Origin: Candidatus Latescibacterota bacterium
Lineage (GTDB): Bacteria; Krumholzibacteriota; Krumholzibacteriia; WVZY01
Length of the DNA: 64,000 bases
NCBI GenBank assembly: GCA_963791045.1
Contig: CAWBQK010000004.1
Coordinates: 1-64,000 of the forward strand
Reading direction: 5' to 3'
Numbering within the stretch: position 1 is the first letter of the stretch; every line of letters starts with the position of its first letter. The translations under genes were made by a program, and so were the position numbers. The notes beneath the pieces are model-generated. The model did not search any database. It saw nothing but the letters and a program-made list of their open reading frames with translations, and had not been told where the DNA came from. This document shows, piece after piece, positions 5,284 through 16,267 of this stretch.

Positions 5284-5967
5284 CTATCGACGTCCCGTGG
5301 CGTCCGAATAGTATCGCGATATCCGCTCGACCCAACCGAGACCACGCATCTCGTCGGGGTCGTATTCCGGAGCGTTGCGAATCACGTCGCTTCCGATCGG
5401 CGTGTAGAGTTGATCGTCATTGGCGGTTCGCTCGACCCACTGGATCGGGATCAGCACCCGTTTCCCCGGCAGCCAGCTTCGCGTGCTGACGACGACACCC
5501 TGAACGTGCCAGTTGGACGTGCTGATGATGACGTCGGTGACCTTGCCGAATCTCCCGTCGCGCGTGGCCAATGGCTCGCCCAGAATATTCGACAACGTCC
5601 GATAATCGCCGCCTGGTTCGTCATATTCGCCTTCATCGGCCACGTCGCCCCGCCGGTCCGCGACGGCGATCGATCCACCGTTCGAGCCCTCCGCACCTTT
5701 CGATCCGGATCGGCGTTGCTCCGGTTCGAAGAACGGCACGAGGTCGTTCTCCAGCGCATCGACGACGAGACGGTCGGCGTCCACACGTTCGATGAGCTGC
5801 CGCGGCACGGCGCGGTCAAGCACGTTGAGCCACCTTCCCGTGCTCGCCACCACGACCTGGACCGTCCATACCACGGAGTCGAGAACCATATCCTTGACAC
5901 GGCCGACCTGGCCGTCACGGGCAACCACATTTTTTCCGATTGTCTTTTTTGCGCGTTCGAGAGTCAC
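5284..5967 (-). CDS. Tandem PRC-barrel domain protein
   Basis: Two repeats: IGKNVVARDGQVGRVKDMVLD...W.V..VV.STG.WL and LGEPLATRDGRFGKVTDVII....W.V..VVVSTRSWLPGKRVLIP. Confidence 0.8.
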   Translation of the reverse strand: MTLERAKKTIGKNVVARDGQVGRVKDMVLDSVVWTVQVVVASTGRWLNVLDRAVPRQLIERVDADRLVVDALENDLVPFFEPEQRRSGSKGAEGSNGGSIAVADRRGDVADEGEYDEPGGDYRTLSNILGEPLATRDGRFGKVTDVIISTSNWHVQGVVVSTRSWLPGKRVLIPIQWVERTANDDQLYTPIGSDVIRNAPEYDPDEMRGLGWVERISRYYSDATGRR

Positions 5968-6021: not shown

Positions 6022-6852
6022 CTAAACGTTTTCCCTGACGTAGTCCGTTACAAACTGATTCCACCCCTGGGGTCCGACACCCTCCGCCCGCACGAGCTCG
6101 GGTATCTCGACGTCTTCCCACTTGCCCTCTGACTTCTGGACGAGCACCGGAACATCAACGGCCCTGAAGAGCGCGAGGTCGTTGAAGCTGTCCCCAAGCC
6201 CGACGAGCCGGACATCGCCGTGTTCGCCGCGATATAACGCGCTCAGGAGCTCGACGGCAACGCCCTTGTCGTGCCGCCCGGAGATGGCATAGAACCGGCC
6301 GCCGCGGCTCAGCCGAAGCTCCCGCTTTGCCAGTTCGGTTTCGATCGTGTTCAGCTCGGCTTTGGAGTGCTTCGAAACAATGGTTTCCTGGTACTCGCGT
6401 CGCATTGCGCATTCGGCGGCGTCCGTGTCGAGTCCGGTGATGTCGGCGACCTCCTCGGGGGTCAGATCGCCGTACCCTTTGAGGTCGATCCCCGTCTTCT
6501 CCCGGACCTCGTCGATGCCGAGAAGAATCGCATCGTACGCAGTCCCCAGTTCAAATACGTAGAAATCCTCCACCTCGCGGTGAAAGGTGAAATCATAGCT
6601 GAAATACCCTTTCTCGATGAAAATCGCCCCGCCGTCCTCGACGATAAAGGGATCACGCAGTCCAAGCGACCGGCGGATTTCTATCTGCTCGGCACGTGTT
6701 TTGGAGCTGCAAAGAACAACCGGGACCTTTTTCTGCTGCGTCGCGTGGAGCGCCGCCCGCGCGTTCTGGAATGAGTACGTCTCGCGATCGAGAAGCGTCC
6801 CGTCGAGATCGGTCACGATGACTGATTGATATGTTCCAGTATCGGGTTTCAT
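6022..6852 (-). CDS. mpgP: Mannosyl-3-phosphoglycerate phosphatase (HAD IIB)
   Basis: DLDGTLLD, CSSKTRAE, PFIVEDGG, GGRF, DKG.AV and GLGDSFND motifs; same operon as mpgS. Confidence 0.9.
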   Translation of the reverse strand: MKPDTGTYQSVIVTDLDGTLLDRETYSFQNARAALHATQQKKVPVVLCSSKTRAEQIEIRRSLGLRDPFIVEDGGAIFIEKGYFSYDFTFHREVEDFYVFELGTAYDAILLGIDEVREKTGIDLKGYGDLTPEEVADITGLDTDAAECAMRREYQETIVSKHSKAELNTIETELAKRELRLSRGGRFYAISGRHDKGVAVELLSALYRGEHGDVRLVGLGDSFNDLALFRAVDVPVLVQKSEGKWEDVEIPELVRAEGVGPQGWNQFVTDYVRENV

Positions 6853-6858
6853 TTGAAA

Positions 6859-8490
6859 TCACCCCATTTGTTGCACGAAATACGCAACGAACACGATAAG
6901 AGCGGTATAGGCGACGAGCGACAGTTGCGACGGTCGAAACCGATCGACGGCGCCAAAATCGGGTCTGGCCAACGGCCCGCGGATGCCAAGGCCGACGGCC
7001 ACCATAACGGCGTGGGCGGCCAGCGCTCCGGCAACGGTCACTGCGAAACCCGCTACGTTCCACCAGAGCCACGACACGTCCGTCAAGCGCCACAGAGCAA
7101 GATTAGCGATGATACCGTTGACCACCCCGAACCTTATTTCACCCCCGGTGATCAGGCGCATCCCGATCCCCACGAGGAACGCGGCGAGAATCGGCCCGTA
7201 GAGAAGGCTTCCGACCGCGTTGATAAGCACGATGGTGGTCTGACGCCCCGCTTCCCCGACGTTCGCAAACGAAAGCGCCGCCGCGATCACGAAAACGCCC
7301 CAGAAAACGGTCAATATTTTGGAGACCACCATGTAGTGGCCGTCGTCCGCGCCGGGTCTGACGTACCGCCGGTAAAAATCTTCCATCGTTGCGGCGGAGA
7401 GCGAGTTGATCGCCGAATCGAGGCTCGACATCAACGCCGACAGAATCGCGACAAAAACGAACCCGACGATCCCCGCGGGCAGGAACGCGAGGATGAACAT
7501 CGGGACCATTCGATCGGGGTTCGCCGCGAGGGCCGCCCTCACGCCGTCGACCGGCATCCCCAACCGTGTCGCGATATGGGCGGCATGTTCGGGCGCGGCA
7601 AACACCGCTCCGACAAAAACACCCATAAGACAGTATAAAAGAACGACTGGGAACCGGCCGAATGCGTTCAGGTAGAGCGACTTCTTGACCTCGGGCAGCG
7701 ACCCGACGGAAAGCTCTCGCTGTACTTGACTTTGGTCACACCCGTAGTAAGACGCGTAAAGGAATATCCCACCGATCGTCATTGGCCAGAACCCATATCC
7801 TCCATTACCAGTGAATCCCCACTGGCTAAAATCGATAATTCGGAGTCTCTCGGGCCCCATGACTTCGAACGCACCCGACCACCCAACCAGGTTGAGCGCC
7901 GTCGCCCCGCAGATGATGATTCCGATCATAATAATGAGCATCTGAACCACATCGCTCACGAGAACGACGCGCATGCCACCGAGCGCGTCGTACAGTATCG
8001 TAACCGCCCCGATAATGAGGATCGCCGAATTGGTCGACAGCGGTGTCGCCGTCGACAAAATCAACCCACCGGCGAGAACCGATACGGCGGTGGCGAGCGC
8101 GCGCCCCAATTGGAAAAGCAGACTCACAAGCGACCGGGTATCCGAGTCGAAGCGGTCTTCGAGATACTCGTATATGCTGATGTAATTGCCGCGGTGGAGT
8201 TTCGGGATGATCCACACCACGACGATGAATATCCCGATGGGGACGCCGAACTCGTAACAGAGCCACTTGAGCCCGCCGTCGGGTTTCAAAGCGACAAACG
8301 CGGGCGCCGACACAAAGCTGATCGCCCCGAGCTGCGTCGCCATGGTCGACAACCCCGACTGCCACCACGGCACCCGCCTGCCGGCAAGGTAATAGTCCCG
8401 GAGGCTTCGCTGCCGCGTGCACTGGACGGCCCCGAAGCCGACGATACCCAGGAGATAGGCACCGATAACGATCCAGTCGAGGTGTGTCAT
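6859..8490 (-). CDS. Sodium:solute symporter (SSS/SLC5 family)
   Basis: Many TM helices; YYLAGR..PWW, SIYEYLE.RF, LGGM..V..SD..Q, DQSQVQR and A.MSSLDS.INSL motifs. Confidence 0.9.
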   Translation of the reverse strand: MTHLDWIVIGAYLLGIVGFGAVQCTRQRSLRDYYLAGRRVPWWQSGLSTMATQLGAISFVSAPAFVALKPDGGLKWLCYEFGVPIGIFIVVVWIIPKLHRGNYISIYEYLEDRFDSDTRSLVSLLFQLGRALATAVSVLAGGLILSTATPLSTNSAILIIGAVTILYDALGGMRVVLVSDVVQMLIIMIGIIICGATALNLVGWSGAFEVMGPERLRIIDFSQWGFTGNGGYGFWPMTIGGIFLYASYYGCDQSQVQRELSVGSLPEVKKSLYLNAFGRFPVVLLYCLMGVFVGAVFAAPEHAAHIATRLGMPVDGVRAALAANPDRMVPMFILAFLPAGIVGFVFVAILSALMSSLDSAINSLSAATMEDFYRRYVRPGADDGHYMVVSKILTVFWGVFVIAAALSFANVGEAGRQTTIVLINAVGSLLYGPILAAFLVGIGMRLITGGEIRFGVVNGIIANLALWRLTDVSWLWWNVAGFAVTVAGALAAHAVMVAVGLGIRGPLARPDFGAVDRFRPSQLSLVAYTALIVFVAYFVQQMG

Positions 8491-8512
8491 AAGTCAGCCA
8501 CCGACGCCGTCA

Positions 8513-9745
8513 TCAACCGACCCGCAGTTCTCTCCGGCTCTCGTCCGCCACGTCCTTTTTGAGAATGCGCCCAACACAGGTCGAGCCGATATCCTCGAGA
8601 AACTGATTCTCGTCGATCGTCGAGAGCGGCGGGAAATATCGCGGCTTCTCGAGCGTCTTCGCGTCGCGGGTGATGTATCCCTTCTTGATGCAATCCCGGC
8701 GAATCTCGGTTTTGAGCTCTTCGGGACAAAGAGGTGAATGGTAAATCACCTGCATCGCAAGGTATCGCATGCGGTCAATATGACTTTCGTCCCCCGCCTC
8801 ATGGAGGTGTGGGTTTCTGGATTCGACCTGATAGATCTCGATTCTTTCCTTCATGAGCTCAGGGAGAGGGCTCTCGACAACGCCCCCGAACTTCTCGAGG
8901 ATGTTGACGATATGGAACGGTTCGATCGAGTACCCCGACGAGTAGTCGAGGCTCATCGCGAGCTCCATCGACATTGCGTGCTCCCCGGCGTTTCCCGTTC
9001 GGATGATCTCGGTCTCGAATCCCGTGTAGTGCCCCATGAGCTTGTTGAGAAGCCGGTTGGTGTTGGCCGTCGACCGTCCCCACTTGCGGAAGAAGATCTT
9101 GGACTCGACGATCTTCGGCTTGCTCTGCCAGGCGATCCGGACCATGCTGTAATCCGACTCGGCGATCGAAAACCCGGCCGCGTATTCGCGGACGTATTCC
9201 TCCACCGCACCCGGGAAATAATTGTCCGCATCGACAAACCCGATGTACTTTTTGCCCGCGAGCTTCGCGAGCATCGTCGCCATGAGCATCCCTTCGGCCT
9301 TGCCGTTGTGGATGACGCCCTTCTTGTTGAGGATCGCGTCGTACCCTGCGTTTTTGAACGCCTTGGCGAACGCGGGATCCTTTTGGTGGACGATGAGCGC
9401 GCTCTTGCCGACAAACTGGCAAAAGTCGCTCAGGGCGTCGACCTCCATGCTGAACCGGTCCACGGGACTGACTGGGCTGTTCGAAACCACGATCGTCAAG
9501 CACTGGTGGGGCACCCCGCAGAGGACGCCCTCGATAAGCTTCAAACGCTCGCTCTTGACTGGAATAACGATCGCCATGTCACGGTAGATCTTGTTGAGCT
9601 CCCGGTACGGCACCGCCTGAATCGCGTGGGTTGCCTGCGGCATCACCGTTTCGTTTCCCCCGCAATCGAGCTCGAACACTTTTTGTAGATCACCAAATCG
9701 AATCGCTCCGAACCTTTCGACGTTTTTTGGCAGTTCCAAACGCAT
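8513..9745 (-). CDS. mpgS: Mannosyl-3-phosphoglycerate synthase (GT55)
   Basis: Real start MRLELPKNVERFG at 9745 (TAATG overlap with upstream stop). Motifs GKAEGM, GFVDADNYFPGAV, MVRI.W..KPK, GNAGEHAM, IEP and RNPHLHE. Confidence 0.93.
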   Translation of the reverse strand: MRLELPKNVERFGAIRFGDLQKVFELDCGGNETVMPQATHAIQAVPYRELNKIYRDMAIVIPVKSERLKLIEGVLCGVPHQCLTIVVSNSPVSPVDRFSMEVDALSDFCQFVGKSALIVHQKDPAFAKAFKNAGYDAILNKKGVIHNGKAEGMLMATMLAKLAGKKYIGFVDADNYFPGAVEEYVREYAAGFSIAESDYSMVRIAWQSKPKIVESKIFFRKWGRSTANTNRLLNKLMGHYTGFETEIIRTGNAGEHAMSMELAMSLDYSSGYSIEPFHIVNILEKFGGVVESPLPELMKERIEIYQVESRNPHLHEAGDESHIDRMRYLAMQVIYHSPLCPEELKTEIRRDCIKKGYITRDAKTLEKPRYFPPLSTIDENQFLEDIGSTCVGRILKKDVADESRRELRVG

Positions 9746-11469
9746 TACACTGCACCACCTTTTATATTCTCGCCGAGCGAGGCAAGCCTCTTCCTGGTGA
9801 TATCCAGTTGGTGCTTTGCGTCTCCTCTGAGCAGACCTACGTGCGCGGCTTGTGTGTCGAGATAGTATTGCACCTGCGGCAGCGGTTCCCACAGGAACTC
9901 GTCGCCGTATTTGTATCCGTAACGAGACGAACTCCCGAGCTTTTCCGTCACCGAAACGTCCGGGTCGTACCCAACCGTTTCGAGAAGGCCGGCGGTGAAT
10001 CCATGCCGGTCCGCCAACTCCTCGAATGCGTCATGGACATTGGCGCCGTGCTGCGCCGCTTCTTTCGACCTGAGCGCGACATCCTTGGGCACGCCGAGCA
10101 CGACGCTCACCGCCCGGTGAATCCTCTTTCCGAGTACGTCCTCTCCCTTTTTGATCTTGTGTTGCGGCGCGATAGCAAACGCGCAGCGGATCACCTCCGG
10201 GTCAAGGTACGGAACTCTCAGCTCAATACTGTGGGCCATCGCTATCTTGTCCTCGCGCTCGAGACATTCCTTGTAGAGCAAAAACGCGTCTTCCCACGAG
10301 CGATCGACAAACGAATCGTATCCTTCGCGATCCACGATGGTCGGATACCACGGGTATCCACCGAAAAGCTCATCGGCGCCTTGTCCCGTGAGAACCACGC
10401 GTTCTCCCGCCTCCTGCGCCATTCGGATCGCGGCGAAGACGGGAATCGCCACCTCGACCTGATTGAGGCTGTGATCCTCGATCGTCTCGATGACTTCGGG
10501 GATCATCGCGTCAATGTCTTCGGCGCTGAGCCGTTTGATCTCGAGAGGAAAGTCGCTGTCTTGCGCGGTGCGCACCGCCCAGTCGATGTCCGACGACCCC
10601 TCGTTTCGACCCGCGACGTAACAGGTAAAAGGAACACCGAGCTTTTGAACGACGTGGGCTATGAGAAAACTGTCGATTCCACCCGAATAAATAATCCCCA
10701 CTCGTTCTCTGTCGTGTACTCGTTTTCTGATAGCATCCTCGAGAACCCGGCCGTATTTTTCGATCGCCTCGTTCGCGTCGGTCACGAGCTTGTCTGTCTT
10801 CAACTTCTCGGGCTGCCAGAACACGCGAATTTGCCGCGAGCCAGGCTCGATAATCATCATTCGACCCGGAAGGAGCCGATTGATTTCGGCTTCGGATCCG
10901 TGGAGTGCGAAGAGCGGCTTCTTTTCCGATGCAAAGGCCGTCACACCCTCAGAGAAACTGTAATACAGCTGACGGACGCCGACACGATCGCGCGCGATCA
11001 CCGTCGTCCTGCCATCCGTGGCGGCCAGCGCATACACTCCGTCGAGGTTCGGTAGAAGCCGCTCCACCGCACTCGCGAGATCGCCATTGTACTCGCGCTC
11101 GAGAAGCCGGCAGATGACTTCGCTGTCGCTCCCCGTCTCGAGTGGTTCATCGCCCATCACGCTCGACCACAACTCGCGAAAGTTGTAAATCTCACCGTTG
11201 TGCAAAACGCTCAAGCGCTCGTCGGACGATTGAAATGGTTGCACCCCGTCGGCCCCGCCGGTGATGGCGAGTCTGACGTGTCCGAGTCCAACCGTTCCTT
11301 TGAGACCTTCAAATTCCAGTTCACCCAGCGATCGCGCGCGCTGGCAAACCCGTCCAACCACAACACCGGCCCCGTCGGGCCCGCGGTGATGCTGCGACTC
11401 GAGCATCGTCTTCAACTGAGGTCCAAGATCGCGTACATTGTCTGTCGCGAGTCCGGCGATTCCGCACAT
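9745..11469 (-). CDS. asnB: Asparagine synthetase B-family glutamine-dependent amidotransferase
   Basis: N-terminal MCGIAG (Ntn Cys), HRGPD, HNGEIYNF, SDSEV, SGGIDS (ATP-PPi loop), TGQGADELFGGY and ELRVPYLD. The acceptor substrate may not be aspartate (see findings). Confidence 0.85.
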   Translation of the reverse strand: MCGIAGLATDNVRDLGPQLKTMLESQHHRGPDGAGVVVGRVCQRARSLGELEFEGLKGTVGLGHVRLAITGGADGVQPFQSSDERLSVLHNGEIYNFRELWSSVMGDEPLETGSDSEVICRLLEREYNGDLASAVERLLPNLDGVYALAATDGRTTVIARDRVGVRQLYYSFSEGVTAFASEKKPLFALHGSEAEINRLLPGRMMIIEPGSRQIRVFWQPEKLKTDKLVTDANEAIEKYGRVLEDAIRKRVHDRERVGIIYSGGIDSFLIAHVVQKLGVPFTCYVAGRNEGSSDIDWAVRTAQDSDFPLEIKRLSAEDIDAMIPEVIETIEDHSLNQVEVAIPVFAAIRMAQEAGERVVLTGQGADELFGGYPWYPTIVDREGYDSFVDRSWEDAFLLYKECLEREDKIAMAHSIELRVPYLDPEVIRCAFAIAPQHKIKKGEDVLGKRIHRAVSVVLGVPKDVALRSKEAAQHGANVHDAFEELADRHGFTAGLLETVGYDPDVSVTEKLGSSSRYGYKYGDEFLWEPLPQVQYYLDTQAAHVGLLRGDAKHQLDITRKRLASLGENIKGGAV

Positions 11470-11498
11470 GTTCAATCAGCTCCCTTTTGGGTTGTATG

Positions 11499-12140
11499 TT
11501 ATTTCTTTTTTTTCTTGCCGGTATCGGACGTGGTCACCGGCCGCTGGATCGGCTCAGCGAGCAACGGCGTCGTTTCGAGGAGCGGCGCGGCGTCGAGCGC
11601 CTCAACGTCCATGAGGTCCACGATTCGCTGGAGCGAAAGCGCGATCGTCGCCTGCTCGATGTCCGGAAGATTCTTGAGCGCTGTCGCCAAACCCTCCTGC
11701 AGCGGTGACGGCGCGTTTTGGACCAGCGCGTGCCCCGTGGCCGTCGCCGTAACGTTCACCATTCGGCGATCCCCGGTGTCCCGGACTCGAAGCACGCACG
11801 ATTTGCTCTCCAGACGGTCCAGGATACCGACGACGGTGCTCGGGCTCAGGAAGACTCGCTCCGCAATCCTTTTGAGCGTTAGCGGCCCCTCTTCGACGAT
11901 CGTGATCAAGCAGATGAGCTGGGGGCCCGTAATGTCGTGAGTGCCACGAAGCTTTCTCGAGTGAAGGTCGACCCCCCGAATGATTTTTCGGAGTGCCTGC
12001 AGGATGCGGAGTTCGTATCGTTCGCTCGGGATCTCAGGCGCCTGACGATCTGTCTCGAGATCCACCGGGACGGCCATTGCCGCCTCGGTCGCGCTATCTT
12101 CTTCATTCTCAGCAGGTTGAATGATCGGCTCGTCAGACAT
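11499..12140 (-). CDS. MarR-family regulator, CosR/EctR-like (compatible-solute regulator)
   Basis: LQALRKIIRGVDLHSRKL...ITGPQL...LSPSTVVGILDRLE...DRR...APSPLQ...EQ..I..SLQRIVDLM...DAAPLL resembles the CosR/EctR1 pattern as recalled. Confidence 0.8.
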   Translation of the reverse strand: MSDEPIIQPAENEEDSATEAAMAVPVDLETDRQAPEIPSERYELRILQALRKIIRGVDLHSRKLRGTHDITGPQLICLITIVEEGPLTLKRIAERVFLSPSTVVGILDRLESKSCVLRVRDTGDRRMVNVTATATGHALVQNAPSPLQEGLATALKNLPDIEQATIALSLQRIVDLMDVEALDAAPLLETTPLLAEPIQRPVTTSDTGKKKKK

Positions 12141-12210
12141 CTGTCACCTCTATGATATCAACAGATAAGATTGTGATACAAATGTTTTGTGTTGAAACTA
12201 TATTAACTTC

Positions 12211-12239
12211 ATAGTAACGTTTAGGGATATGTGGGTCAA
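12211..12239 (-). promoter_or_regulatory. Sigma70-type promoter for the regulator-asnB-mpgS operon
   Basis: Minus strand TTGACC-N17-TACTAT. Confidence 0.6.
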
Positions 12240-12344
12240 CCGATATATTGAATTTCTTGCGGATCGTTCTCATCGCATTACACGTCAGCAAGTTACGATC
12301 GACAATTGCGGGTATATCTTCGCACGCGAAAGGAATAGTGTATT

Positions 12345-13697
12345 ATGTGCGATATTTTGGTTGCCCTAGGCGACGCAACAGCGTCCAACCGGGTTATTTT
12401 TGGCAAAAACAGCGACCGCCCTGCGGGTGAGTGTCAGGTTCTCTTCGACTCGGCAACCGAGTCGCCTTCGCGGGACAGCATAATCCAAGCGGCTTTTGTC
12501 GAGGTCCCTGATGTCCCGGACGTGCTTCGGACCATCGGCACCCGTCCCTACTGGTGCTGGGGATACGAGACGGGAATCAACGAGGCCGGCGTCGTCGGGG
12601 GTAACACGGCAGTCTACACCCGGTCGTTCTGGCGGATGGACAATCAGGCAATCCTCGGCTTGACCGGGATGGAGCTTCTTCGCCTCGGTCTCGAACGGGG
12701 ATCAACCGCCCAGGGGGCCATCGACGTCATCACAGTCCTTCTCGAGGCGTACGGCCAATGGGGCCCCGCCGTCATCGGCGCGGATCCCCCACAGTCGTGC
12801 TACGAAAACGCCTTTCTGATCGCTGACGCAAACGAGGCGTGGGTGCTCGAAACCGCCGGTCGGCGTTGGGTGGCCAAGCAAATCGTTTCGGGCGTCCGCG
12901 CGCTTTCCAACGAGCTTTCTATCCGCAGCAAATGGACGGTTGGAAGTCCCGGCATCGTTGAAGACGCCGTTACCAACAAATGGTGGTCACTGGAGGACGG
13001 GCCGCTCGATTTCGCCCGCGCATACAGCGATCACGAGCATTACTCGCGGCAAGCGTCGCACATTCGGTGGTCCCGGGCCACACAGCTCCTCCGCGACGCG
13101 CATGGCGGAATTACACCGGCAATGATGATCGAGTTCCTTCGCGATCACTACGAAGGGACGTTTATCCAGGGCCCACAGTTCGACGTTTACACCCCCGACT
13201 TCCTCACGATTTGCATGCACGACTCGCCGTCGGGGTTCACCTGGGGAAACACGGCGACGTCTTTCGTGGTTGAGATCGATCCGAACAATCCGCTGGCCAC
13301 GCCCTTCTGGTGCTGTTACCAGCCGCCCTGCTCGAGCGTATACCTCCCCTTCACTATGGAGACGACGCTTCCGCCGGCAGTCGCCTCGCCCGGTACGGCG
13401 GGTTTTTTGTCCGAATCCCCGGCCACCGCACCCAAAGACTCGTTTAGCGACGAATCGCTCTGGTGGCGGCTCTATCGGGTGCTCGACGCCGTGAAGGCCA
13501 ACCCCATCAAACGCCGTGAGGAGCTCCGGTCGTACTTCGATCTCGTCGAGCTGTCGGGACACCACTGGGTCGAGACCCTCCCCGCCCTGGGGGCGACGGA
13601 GCGCGCGTCGAAGACCGCCGCCCAGATCGAGTCACAGATGCTCGAAGTCGACGAAATTCTCGCTCGCCTCGAGACTAACTGGAACATTTCTCGCTAG
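12345..13697 (+). CDS. Peptidase C69/secernin-like Ntn-hydrolase
   Basis: MCDILVAL...VIFGKNSDRP..ECQ, PYWCWGYE.GINE.GV, GLTGMELLRLGLERG and FLIAD..EAWVLETAGR.W; N-terminal Cys nucleophile. Confidence 0.85.
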   Translation: MCDILVALGDATASNRVIFGKNSDRPAGECQVLFDSATESPSRDSIIQAAFVEVPDVPDVLRTIGTRPYWCWGYETGINEAGVVGGNTAVYTRSFWRMDNQAILGLTGMELLRLGLERGSTAQGAIDVITVLLEAYGQWGPAVIGADPPQSCYENAFLIADANEAWVLETAGRRWVAKQIVSGVRALSNELSIRSKWTVGSPGIVEDAVTNKWWSLEDGPLDFARAYSDHEHYSRQASHIRWSRATQLLRDAHGGITPAMMIEFLRDHYEGTFIQGPQFDVYTPDFLTICMHDSPSGFTWGNTATSFVVEIDPNNPLATPFWCCYQPPCSSVYLPFTMETTLPPAVASPGTAGFLSESPATAPKDSFSDESLWWRLYRVLDAVKANPIKRREELRSYFDLVELSGHHWVETLPALGATERASKTAAQIESQMLEVDEILARLETNWNISR

Positions 13698-13719: not shown

Positions 13720-16267
13720 ATGAAAAAGAAGAAAAACACAATCTTCCTGGTCCCCCATACCCATTACGACGTCGTCTGGGCGATGACGAAACAGGACTAT
13801 CTAAATATCCACAAGAAGATCCTCCGTCAGGCCCTCGACTTGATCGAGAAAACCGATTTCAAATTCCTTATCGAACAAGCGTATCTCCTCGAGCAAATCG
13901 AGTCTCAAGATCCGGACCTGTTCGAGTCGATCTCTCAGGCGATCGCGAGCGGGCGAATAGAGATCGTCGACGGCGAGTACCTCATGCCCGACCCGATGAT
14001 TCCCGCCGAAGAGGTTCTCGTCCGCGAAATTCTCGTCGGAAAAAACTACTGCAAGGACAAGTTCGGGGTGGATGTTCCCGTCGCGTGGATGTCGGACGGG
14101 TTCGGACTCAACGGGCAGCTTCCACAGATCTACAAGAAGTCCGGTTACAAGTGGCTCGCGTTTCGCCGCGGGCTTCCCCGCTCCGTCGGCTCGCGCACCA
14201 GTGAGTTTATTTGGGAAGGAATCGACGGGACACAGATCCCCGCCCACTGGATGCCCTTCGGTTACCGGGCCGGTCTCGATATTACCAAGTGGCACGAGAC
14301 CCACAAGAACCTCGCCGCCCTTGCCACCACGGGAAACGTCCTGATGCCCTGCGGAAGCGGCGGGATGCTCATTCAGGAAGAGATACCCGAGGCCGTCGCG
14401 GAGTGGAACAACACGAACCGGCGGCCACGCATGGTGATCGCAACGCCCCGCGAATTCTTCGAGGCGCTCGATAGAGACGGCGGCCCGTCGACCGTGTTCC
14501 GCGGCGAGCTCTACAGCGCGGACATGGAGGATATATTCCCCGATGTCGTCTCGAGCCGGATCGGGCTCAAGCTTGCCATCCGAGAGTGCGAGGATCTGAT
14601 CAAGTCGATCGAGAAGGCGTCCGCGCTTGCCTATCTCCACGGACAGCGCTACCCCAAGGGACGGCTGAGCGACGCATGGCGAAAGATGCTCTTCCTCGGT
14701 TTTCACGATGTCGTCCCCGCGTGCGGAATCGACGAGATCTACGACGAGGCGTGGCAGTACGTCGACGACATCAAAAAGCTCGCCAACGAATTTTACGGAT
14801 CGTCGCTCGACTCGCTTCTGCCCGACTCCAAGAACGGCGTCGGGGTCATGGTGTTCAATCCCCACAGTTGGGAAATCAAGGACTGGGTCGAGGTCGAGCT
14901 CAATCTCGGGACCGGATGGAGCGCCGAGCCGGGCATCTTCGAGAACGGCAATGAGATTTCGAGCGAGGCCCGGGATATCGAACGATGGGACGACGAAAGC
15001 ATCCAGCGACTTCGAGTCGGCTTCGTCGCCACCGTGCCCCCGCTTGGGTATCGTGTCTATCAGGTTCGCCCGAAGGCCCGTAAGTTCAGAAGCAAGAAAA
15101 TCAAGATCAAGGAAAACGAAGTATCGACGAAGTTTTTCGATCTCCGCATCCTTCCCGAAAGCGGAATCCTCGAAGTCTTCGACAAAGACGGCAACGAGAT
15201 CCTCAAAGGCAACGAGGTCGTCATCGATGCCGAGGTGGGCGACCTCTACTTTCACAAGAGCTATCTCAAACAGCCAATCGGCTCTGAGAGCGGAGAAGGA
15301 ATCAAGTTCGGGGTGTTCAAGCCCGAAGAGCTAAAGATCGAGAAAGGACCTATCCGGACGACGATCACGTACAAGGATTCTTTTTATTGTCTCAGATGGC
15401 CCTACTACCTCACCGACAAATACGAGCCTCTCATCTACAGGCAGAAGACGATCGATGTCGTCAAGAAGGTCGTCGTCTACAATGACATTCCGCGGATCGA
15501 CTTTTTCACGGAGCTCGACTCCCAGCAGTCGCACATCCGCGTGAGGCTTCGTTTCGACACCTGTATGGCCGCCCCGACCTACACCCGCGAGACCCAGTTT
15601 GGCGCCGTCGAACTTCCACGATCCCGAACACTCGAGGAAGGCGTCAAGATGCCATCCCTCACGTGGCTCGCCGCCGACGAGGGCGGACGCGGGCTGGCGT
15701 TTCTGTCGAAGGGCGTCCCGATCAACCAGGTTCGCGGCGGCGAAATCTTCTGCACGCTTCTTCGTAGCGTGTCCGTGTTGTCGGCGGACGGCGTCAGCGG
15801 TCCCCTCATTCCCACACCGGGCGCGATGGAACTCGGTGAGCACTCATACCAGTACTCCGTCTTCCCCTACTCCGGCGAGTGGAAGACCGCCGACGTCCCC
15901 CGCGAAGCCTATCGGTTCGGCGAGGGACTTGTGCGGATTCCAGGTCGATCGAATTCCTACCCCCCTCTCGTACGAGACCTTTCGTCTGTCGCCCCACAAT
16001 CTCGTGATCTCGGCTCTCAAAAAGGCCGAGCGCGACGAGGCCCTCATTTTGCGGTTCTTCGAAACCAGTGGCGATGCGTGCCACGCGAGGTTAAAGCTCC
16101 CGACCAATGTCCGAGGGGTCATCCCGGTCAACTTGATCGAACAGCAGGTGCCCGACACCAACAATATCGAGATGCGTGACCACTGTATCGAACTCGATGT
16201 TCGCCCGTTCGAAATCATCACGCTCAAACTTCTCTTTGATCGCGTGCCGTCGGTAAACAACAAGTAA
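13720..16267 (+). CDS. GH38 alpha-mannosidase (cytoplasmic, MngB-like), frameshift near 15925
   Basis: HTHYDVVW, W..DGFG (nucleophile region) and FHDVV motifs. C-terminal GH38 domain (VISALKKAE...LILRFFE..G...PFEIITLKL) continues in ORF 15599..16267. No signal peptide. Confidence 0.88.

Follow-up and report, generated by a model that had tools for sequence, protein, structure and literature searches.

Layout of the locus

Here we describe a gene cluster at positions 6022 to 12140 of a stretch of 64,000 nucleotides (nt) of contig CAWBQK010000004.1 (assembly GCA_963791045.1, Candidatus Latescibacterota bacterium, class Krumholzibacteriia); this whole stretch is called the window below. A gene for an AsnB-like protein (AsnBL) lies there in the operon for synthesis of mannosylglycerate (MG), and we weigh the reading that AsnBL may amidate this solute to mannosylglyceramide. 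Mannosylglyceramide has been known since 1999 as a salt-stress solute of Rhodothermus marinus, where it is reported as the salt-favoured neutral partner of MG (PMC1224877). The enzyme forming it is not named in the literature found by a search that missed most subscription journals and supplements.

Genes were named by Pfam and NCBIfam profiles, and the features are as follows (lengths in amino acids, aa).

11499..12140, minus strand: MarR-family regulator, 213 aa, first gene of the operon (PF01047, 49.6 bits)
9745..11469, minus strand: AsnBL, AsnB-family glutamine-dependent ATP/PP-loop amidotransferase, 574 aa; candidate mannosylglycerate amidotransferase (mannosylglyceramide synthase)
9743..9747, minus strand: TAATG overlap of the AsnBL stop and the mpgS start (translational coupling), read from the sequence
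8513..9745, minus strand: MpgS, mannosyl-3-phosphoglycerate synthase (glycosyltransferase family GT55), 410 aa (TIGR02460, 483.7 bits, cut-off 351.2; PF09488, 497 bits)
6859..8490, minus strand: sodium:solute symporter, 543 aa (TIGR00813, 214 bits, cut-off 184; PF00474)
6022..6852, minus strand: MpgP, mannosyl-3-phosphoglycerate phosphatase of the HAD-IIB type, 276 aa (TIGR01486, TIGR02461)
12141..12344, no strand: intergenic region between the divergent MarR and hydrolase genes; putative promoter/operator region
12345..13697, plus strand: secernin/C69-like amidohydrolase with N-terminal nucleophile (Ntn) cysteine, 450 aa, N-terminus MCD...; candidate mannosylglyceramide deamidase
about 13720..16179, plus strand: GH38 alpha-mannosidase, about 819 aa; candidate hydrolase of the mannosyl solute

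The open reading frames (ORFs) of MarR, AsnBL, mpgS, the symporter and mpgP are co-oriented on the minus strand and make up one tight operon, with intergenic distances, in order from MarR to mpgP, of 29, -4 (an overlap), 22 and 6 nt. An earlier note on the same DNA had reported this operon, and the observation is confirmed here; the gene list of that note is now extended by the Ntn hydrolase and GH38 genes, a pair transcribed divergently from MarR that had been overlooked. The overlap of the AsnBL stop with the mpgS start was verified by a direct reading of the minus strand (...GCA GTG TAA TGC GTT...), in which the TAA of AsnBL occupies 9747-9745 and the ATG of mpgS 9745-9743.

MpgS and MpgP of the window pass the curated cut-offs for the pathway known from Thermus thermophilus, Pyrococcus horikoshii and Rhodothermus marinus. 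MpgP scores 243.6 bits against TIGR01486 (cut-off 164.75) and, marginally, 244.4 against TIGR02461 (cut-off 244.35), and MpgS aligns end to end with the solved MpgS structures 2WVK and 2ZU7 (for 2WVK, E 1e-107 over residues 1-379). The known MpgS/MpgP operons differ from the present one in having no amidotransferase, and the amide form is reported from R. marinus only (PMC1224877).

Catalytic and acceptor residues of AsnBL

The start of AsnBL was placed at the ATG at 11469 (MCGIAG..., ATG TGC at 11469-11464), which has GGGAG about 10 nt upstream, so that the cysteine becomes residue 2 as an Ntn amidotransferase needs. This ATG replaces the TTG at 11475 with which the listed ORF (9745-11475) began; the database form of the protein also has 574 aa. 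Both expected domains were found (PF00733, 147.6 bits; glutaminase GATase_6/7, PF13537, 89 bits), and the protein matches Escherichia coli AsnB (PDB 1CT9) and human asparagine synthetase (ASNS, 6GQ3) across both domains at about 27-28% identity, AsnB being its best sequence match in the PDB (E 1e-27). AsnBL thus shares with AsnB the build of a Cys-Ntn glutaminase joined to a PP-loop domain, together with the residues for binding of glutamine and of ATP and pyrophosphate (PPi).

The residues were compared in an alignment that joined the window AsnBL and its 26 full-length orthologues from named genomes to 14 further members of the AsnB family and to AsnB of E. coli K-12, and the numbers used here are those of E. 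coli AsnB, counted from Cys1 of the K-12 protein. On this count the TTxR motif stands one position off from 322/323/325, which we take to be its usual numbering. The glutaminase residues Cys1, R49, N74, G75, E76 and D98 are invariant in 27 of 27 AsnBL orthologues, and the ATP/PPi and adenylation residues (SGGxDS, D351, E352, Y357, K429 and K449) are likewise kept in all 27. Hydrolysis of glutamine and adenylation of a carboxylate should therefore work, as predicted from these residues, and the earlier statement that the Ntn cysteine and the ATP-PPi loop are intact holds, since the cysteine follows Met directly and the loop reads SGGIDS.

The acceptor pocket is changed in the same 27 proteins, all of which carry E348->Q, T322->Q, R324->E and K376->D; the E. 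coli residues T321-T322-I323-R324 align with N/G-Q-V-E, of which Q and E are found in 27 of 27. In human ASNS the equivalent of E348, Glu-364, belongs to an acidic cluster which is described as holding the alpha-amino end of beta-aspartyl-AMP, and the variants E364Q and E364A are reported to be inactive with Asp, ATP and ammonium (PMC6748925). An involvement in binding aspartate and ATP is cited for the TTxR residues (PMC5775275), and in the literature checked for residue roles none was found for Arg-340. Two marks of asparagine synthetases, the conserved Glu (E348/E364) and the TTxR motif, are thus both replaced in AsnBL. A pocket with fewer positive and more acidic or amide side chains would be better suited to a neutral acceptor that carries a sugar than to an amino acid or a phosphate ester.

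It had also been proposed that a C-terminal segment (KLGSSSRYGY...) reshapes the acceptor site. This stretch is partly invariant within the AsnBL clade, and the proposal was left unsupported, the clade-specific changes that were mapped lying at E. coli positions 322-324, 348 and 376. An AlphaFold2 (AF2) model of AsnBL from the single sequence gave no usable structure, with a predicted local distance difference test score (pLDDT) of 34.7.

Position of AsnBL on the tree

A search of 1.84 billion representatives returned 661 proteins at E up to 1e-30, and a tree of 169 sequences was built with FastTree only. All 27 proteins from mpgS loci fall, with 26 library representatives, into one AsnBL clade (support 98), and nearly all members of this clade carry the signature Q322-[VI]-E324 / Q348 / D376. 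The sister clade (93 sequences) has Q348, but K or other residues at 322 and G, S or A at 324; E. coli AsnB and the sequences that keep E348/R324 stand outside a clade of 147 sequences (support 100) which contains AsnBL. The check by phylogeny that had been suggested before thus came out in favour of a separate AsnBL, which does not group with E. coli AsnB. As a marker the change E348->Q was rejected when taken alone, since the sister clade shares it; the combined QxE/Q348/D376 signature marks the AsnBL clade on sequence grounds, and Q348 alone is not diagnostic. AsnBL differs from AsnB by E348Q, by TTIR->xQVE, by K376D, by its separate clade, by its place in a solute operon and by its restriction, among the genomes sampled, to those with MpgS.

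Some members of the clade have Ser, Gly or Ala instead of Cys1 and may use free ammonia or a separate glutaminase. On three metagenome contigs (L152, L155, L157) the AsnBL gene has Ser for Cys1, keeps the QIE/Q/D signature, adjoins a divergent MpgS and has MpgP and GH38 nearby. In a genome related to that of the window, one contig (G034:C48:27793-29103) holds a second AsnBL-like ORF of 533 aa, with 33% identity, about 6 kb from the AsnBL-MpgS-Ntn cluster of this genome. A search of the ESM Atlas with AsnBL returned generic AsnB clusters only, and no member of the clade was found in a plasmid collection, where all matches had less than 30% identity.

Linkage to MpgS and MpgP

The scan of named-species genomes, which relies on exact peptide words and is far from exhaustive, returned 44 loci, 30 of them with an orthologous AsnBL (41-75% identity). 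These loci come from Krumholzibacteriia, Latescibacteria, Fidelibacterota, Anaerolineales, Bacteroidota, Ignavibacteria, Thermodesulfobacteriota, Dehalococcoidales and Nitrososphaeraceae. The neighbours of AsnBL in the 30 loci are MpgS (22), MpgP (13), the symporter (12, in each case between mpgS and mpgP), a MarR homologue (10, just upstream of AsnBL), GH38 (9) and the Ntn hydrolase (6). MpgS is present in 19 of the 20 bacterial loci and the remaining one has MpgP. In the ten archaeal loci MpgS stands upstream in three, three are too short to tell, and four are flanked without it, the genomes of all four having MpgS elsewhere.

A further scan of metagenomes was seeded with clade members of unknown context and added 80 loci, which by signature comprise 71 of the clade and nine of the sister clade. 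MpgS or MpgP occurs in 41 of 101 clade loci and in 27 of the 46 that have 2 kb or more of flank on each side, figures in which the linkage is under-represented because the metagenome set was chosen for the subclades least like the window. None of the nine sister-clade loci holds any of the genes tested, among them MpgS, MpgP and the amidases. The linkage of AsnBL with MpgS is far more than chance would give, and the neighbourhood survey proposed earlier bears out that it recurs, in about ten bacterial lineages and in Nitrososphaera-type archaea.

In the metagenome loci L080-L093 AsnBL has about 40% identity to that of the window and is directly followed by a CN-hydrolase, and no MpgS was found within 6 kb. 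Loci L080 and L081 have a MalK-type sugar ATP-binding cassette (ABC) transporter, L081 also has a TreT-like glycosyltransferase and a CLC channel upstream, and L092 has GH38 and a HAD hydrolase.

Distribution among genomes

Of 151 genomes sampled from the phylum of the source organism, four have AsnBL and seven MpgS, and in each of the four AsnBL adjoins MpgS. Among 201 genomes from the order of a Nitrososphaera-type archaeon (G306), AsnBL was found in 43 and MpgS in 66; cross-tabulation gave both genes in 43 of 43 carriers, MpgS only in 23 and AsnBL only in none, a result that must be discounted to some degree, since genomes of one order are kin and 43/43 overstates their independence. In the class of a carrier metagenome-assembled genome of Bacteroidota (G001) AsnBL was found in that genome only (1/151). 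A modifier of the MpgS product would be expected to be distributed in this way, confined to genomes that also have MpgS. Since 147 of the 151 genomes of the phylum and 158 of the 201 archaeal ones do without AsnBL, it does not serve either group as housekeeping asparagine synthetase.

The source genome has four further AsnB-family genes (622-644 aa) on contigs C6, C7 and C3, two of them in tandem on C6, and none groups with AsnBL. A search of sequencing runs listed no RNA run, and DNA runs with a small share only.

Probable step of the proposed amidation

The MpgS proteins of 26 genomes with AsnBL were compared with those of 18 archaeal genomes having MpgS only. In this alignment 52 columns are invariant in all 44 proteins and none discriminates the two groups, so that MpgS of the carriers probably uses the usual substrates and amidation would follow it. 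That amidation comes after MpgS had been inferred before and is now the most likely order; amidation before MpgS (e.g. of 3-phosphoglycerate) is disfavoured on the same ground. With Glu/Asp in place of Arg/Lys, the AsnBL pocket would accommodate a neutral glycoside more readily than a phosphate ester, which would favour MG over mannosyl-3-phosphoglycerate as the acceptor.

In eight loci of Nitrososphaera type (L099, L105, L108, L028, L104, L109, L137, L142) a small HAD phosphatase of about 215 aa (PF12710/PF00702, not MpgP-like) is encoded about 100 nt upstream of AsnBL. The gene order is mpgS-HAD-asnBL in L099, L105 and L108, which fits a sequence of synthase, phosphatase and amidotransferase, and the small HAD protein may be a non-orthologous mannosyl-3-phosphoglycerate phosphatase.

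Hydrolases beside AsnBL

The Ntn hydrolase of the window scores barely over the cut-off for PF03577 (Peptidase_C69; 24.7 bits, cut-off 23), has no match in the PDB by sequence, and its relatives are named secernin or C69 family dipeptidase in databases. In 46 relatives the conservation of M1, C2 and D3 is 90% or higher. An AlphaFold (AF2) model from the alignment of these 46 sequences reached a pLDDT of 88.5 and a predicted template modelling (TM) score of 0.91; compared with the PDB by Foldseek, it best matched the C69 Cys dipeptidase 5IAU (TM 0.73, E 9e-18, about 15% identity), followed by bile-salt hydrolases and penicillin V acylases, all of them Cys-Ntn enzymes cutting amide bonds. The protein, as modelled, thus has the N-terminal Cys after Met and the Ntn alpha-beta-beta-alpha fold that define C69 proteins and secernins, and it shares the MC... 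N-terminus with these dipeptidases and with the hydrolases and acylases just named. Its context would suggest a small primary amide as substrate, not the dipeptide of the C69 enzymes.

Close orthologues of the Ntn hydrolase (59-63% identity) were found in three of 151 genomes of the phylum, each beside AsnBL-MpgS. Among its top 120 relatives, 20 pair with the top 120 of AsnBL by equal size of the longest contig (17 of 47 where contigs are at least 10 kb).

The GH38 protein has the N-terminal, middle and C-terminal domains of that family, and its PDB relatives are cytosolic alpha-mannosidases. Its best NCBIfam match is mannosylglycerate hydrolase NF007331 at 212.4 bits, far under the cut-off of 1138; it thus belongs to the same family as MngB of E. 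coli but is not its equivalog. MngB acts on a 6-phosphorylated solute.

In the 101 clade loci three kinds of amidase were found near AsnBL, namely the Ntn hydrolase (7), a CN-hydrolase (15, of which 12 within 700 nt) and an isochorismatase-like protein (18, all within 900 nt), in 39 distinct loci, and none was found in the nine sister-clade loci. The CN-hydrolase and isochorismatase-like partners were identified by Pfam and counted by tblastn. All three superfamilies include hydrolases of primary carboxamides, such as nicotinamidase, aliphatic and omega-amidases, and Ntn amidases. That amidases of three unrelated superfamilies stand, in different lineages, beside one amidotransferase clade suggests a cycle in which an amide is made and broken, and is the pattern to be expected of a partner that deamidates the product. 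This pattern, like the comparison of MpgS between carriers and non-carriers, is new here.

Regulation, transport and neighbouring genes

By analogy with PA3458 of the operon for N-acetylglutaminylglutamine amide (NAGGN), MarR probably represses the operon, the divergent hydrolase pair, or both. Scans of the operon and the divergent region for promoters, terminators and inverted repeats gave nothing beyond chance, the one promoter-like site per strand and the three imperfect inverted repeats of 12141..12344 being at chance level. The MarR protein (11499-12140) is extended at its N-terminus by an acidic stretch of about 60 residues and ends in a lysine run (GKKKKK), and its homologues from related loci align only from about residue 30-45 on. 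The symporter possibly re-imports the solute. Directly downstream of mpgP (5284-5967, minus strand) lies a gene for a protein with two PRC barrels, which does not recur in the related loci.

Comparison with known systems

In NAGGN synthesis the AsnB-like AsnO is described as amidating an osmolyte carboxylate of a solute built by Ngg, in an operon with the MarR-type repressor PA3458 and the peptidase PA3461 (PMC8070244). The likeness of AsnO-Ngg of Pseudomonas aeruginosa and Sinorhizobium meliloti to the present system lies in the capping of a free carboxylate of an osmolyte as a primary amide by an AsnB-family enzyme and in a gene set of MarR, solute enzyme and hydrolase. The two differ in that the acceptor of AsnO is a dipeptide and not a glycoside, and in that MarR is divergent there and co-directional here. 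AsnBL reaches 156.4 bits against the AsnO profile TIGR03104 (cut-off 570.1) and so belongs to a different AsnB subfamily; the comparison with AsnO drawn in the earlier note is apt as an analogy and does not extend to kinship of family.

The main text of a paper on a metabolic model of R. marinus lists two asparagine synthase genes and gives no locus tag for mpgS, and the plasmid of R. marinus DSM 4252 has no MpgS. The literature found on ammonia-oxidising archaea mentions MpgS and not the AsnBL gene.

Proposed pathway and weighing of the evidence

We propose that AsnBL, an amidotransferase of the AsnB family, takes as its acceptor not aspartate but the glycerate carboxylate of the solute that its operon partners make, and is thus a mannosylglyceramide synthase; we put the probability of this at roughly 0.55. 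Comparative genomics makes it the best available candidate for the enzyme forming mannosylglyceramide. The reading in the earlier note is in part supported, by the separate clade, the replacement of the residues that hold aspartate, the recurrent mpgS linkage and the occurrence nested in that of MpgS; its proposal on the C-terminal segment found no support.

MpgS would join GDP-mannose with 3-phosphoglycerate, and MpgP would remove the phosphate to give MG. The PP-loop domain of AsnBL would then adenylate the MG carboxylate, and ammonia set free from glutamine at the N-terminal Cys of AsnBL would attack it, giving neutral mannosylglyceramide with Glu, AMP and PPi. In an alternative order the phosphorylated intermediate would be amidated first and MpgP would act afterwards. 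The divergent Cys-Ntn hydrolase may return mannosylglyceramide to MG by deamidation and GH38 may split off mannose, so that a make-and-break cycle could operate under control of MarR. The substrate and product of AsnBL, the role of each hydrolase and the regulation by MarR are in this scheme what we infer from the genes and their context.

Several observations weigh against the proposal. In one subclade, of about 17 metagenome loci (L080-L096), MpgS is missing within 6 kb and a CN-hydrolase adjoins AsnBL in 12 loci, so the acceptor of this CN-hydrolase-linked subclade may differ, and in four of the 46 well-flanked loci MG genes and amidases are both missing. Rhodothermus is absent from the 44 loci of the non-exhaustive exact-peptide-word scan. 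Q348 is not specific to the clade, as it is found in the large sister clade that lacks MG linkage. AsnBL is the sole full-length AsnB-type gene in five of five Nitrososphaera-type genomes, and the source genome (81% complete) has AsnRS and GatB and no AsnA, so that it needs a source of free Asn. The four AsnB paralogues of that genome show D, Q, D and H at 348, where the alignment is unreliable. On the residues, a role of AsnBL in Asn supply is unlikely.

The first alternative is that AsnBL amidates another carboxylate made or needed under the same stress (for instance glycerate, another glycosyl-glycerate, a solute derived from an amino acid, or a component of the cell envelope) and is only co-regulated with MG synthesis. 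This is unlikely, yet some points speak for it: MG as acceptor is our inference, the AsnB family takes many acceptors (PDB relatives include beta-lactam synthetase, CarA and a hydroxyamidotransferase), and a subgroup of the clade, lacking MpgS within 6 kb, has as neighbours a CN-hydrolase together with either a sugar ABC transporter or a TreT-like glycosyltransferase. It is opposed by the translational coupling of AsnBL to mpgS in the window and by the adjoining MpgS in 19 of 20 bacterial loci though the other neighbours are shuffled. Moreover AsnBL occurred without MpgS in 0 of 4 and 0 of 43 carrier genomes, and no other gene of solute synthesis recurs beside it in the loci examined.

A second alternative concerns the hydrolases, which, instead of degrading the product, might feed ammonia to AsnBL as the nitrilase-like domain does in glutamine-dependent NAD synthetase, or of which the Ntn and GH38 pair might be an unrelated unit for catabolism of mannosides or glycopeptides. 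CN-hydrolase domains are ammonia donors for PP-loop synthetases (NadE), the pairing of GH38 with an Ntn hydrolase recalls the breakdown of N-glycans, and the clade members with Ser, Gly or Ala for Cys1 would need ammonia from outside. The ammonia-donor role is however weakened by the intact glutaminase site, which is complete in the window AsnBL and in all 27 aligned orthologues, and the AsnBL members linked to a CN-hydrolase also begin with MC. Against both forms of this explanation stand the 3 of 151 genomes of the phylum where close Ntn orthologues occur, only beside AsnBL-MpgS, and the 20 top relatives that pair with those of AsnBL by longest-contig size, and we consider it improbable.

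That AsnBL is a genuine asparagine synthetase riding with mpgS, making Asn as a nitrogen-rich solute or for protein synthesis under stress, is very improbable: its 287 bits exceed the equivalog cut-off of TIGR01536 for asparagine synthase (267), it bears that annotation in every source, and the single AsnB-type gene of the archaea and the AsnRS without AsnA of the source genome speak for it, but Gln replaces the required Glu in 27 of 27 orthologues when human E364Q is reported inactive (PMC6748925), TTxR has become xQVE in all of them, the clade stands apart from E. coli AsnB and the sequences keeping E348/R324, and the gene is missing from most genomes of the phylum and of the archaeal order, with a distribution nested in that of MpgS.

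Value of the finding

A broader view can be offered tentatively, with odds somewhat short of even. Mannosylglyceramide, or a close glycosyl-glycerate amide, may occur widely as a neutral solute, in about ten lineages of uncultured bacteria and in ammonia-oxidising archaea of soil, made by a dedicated synthetase derived from AsnB; a cognate deamidase may have been recruited at least three times, from unrelated superfamilies (secernin-like Ntn, CN-hydrolase, isochorismatase-like), and the solute may be switched between anionic and neutral forms with stress.

If the mannosylglyceramide synthase reading is true, an orphan reaction would gain a gene, and the signature xQ[VI]E / Q348 / D376 could correct the blanket annotation "asparagine synthetase B". 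A three-gene route (mpgS, mpgP, asnBL) to a compound of biotechnological interest would then be available, and the neutral solute would be predicted in many uncultured phyla and in soil nitrifiers. The gene set further raises the idea that the charge of a compatible solute may be switched reversibly.

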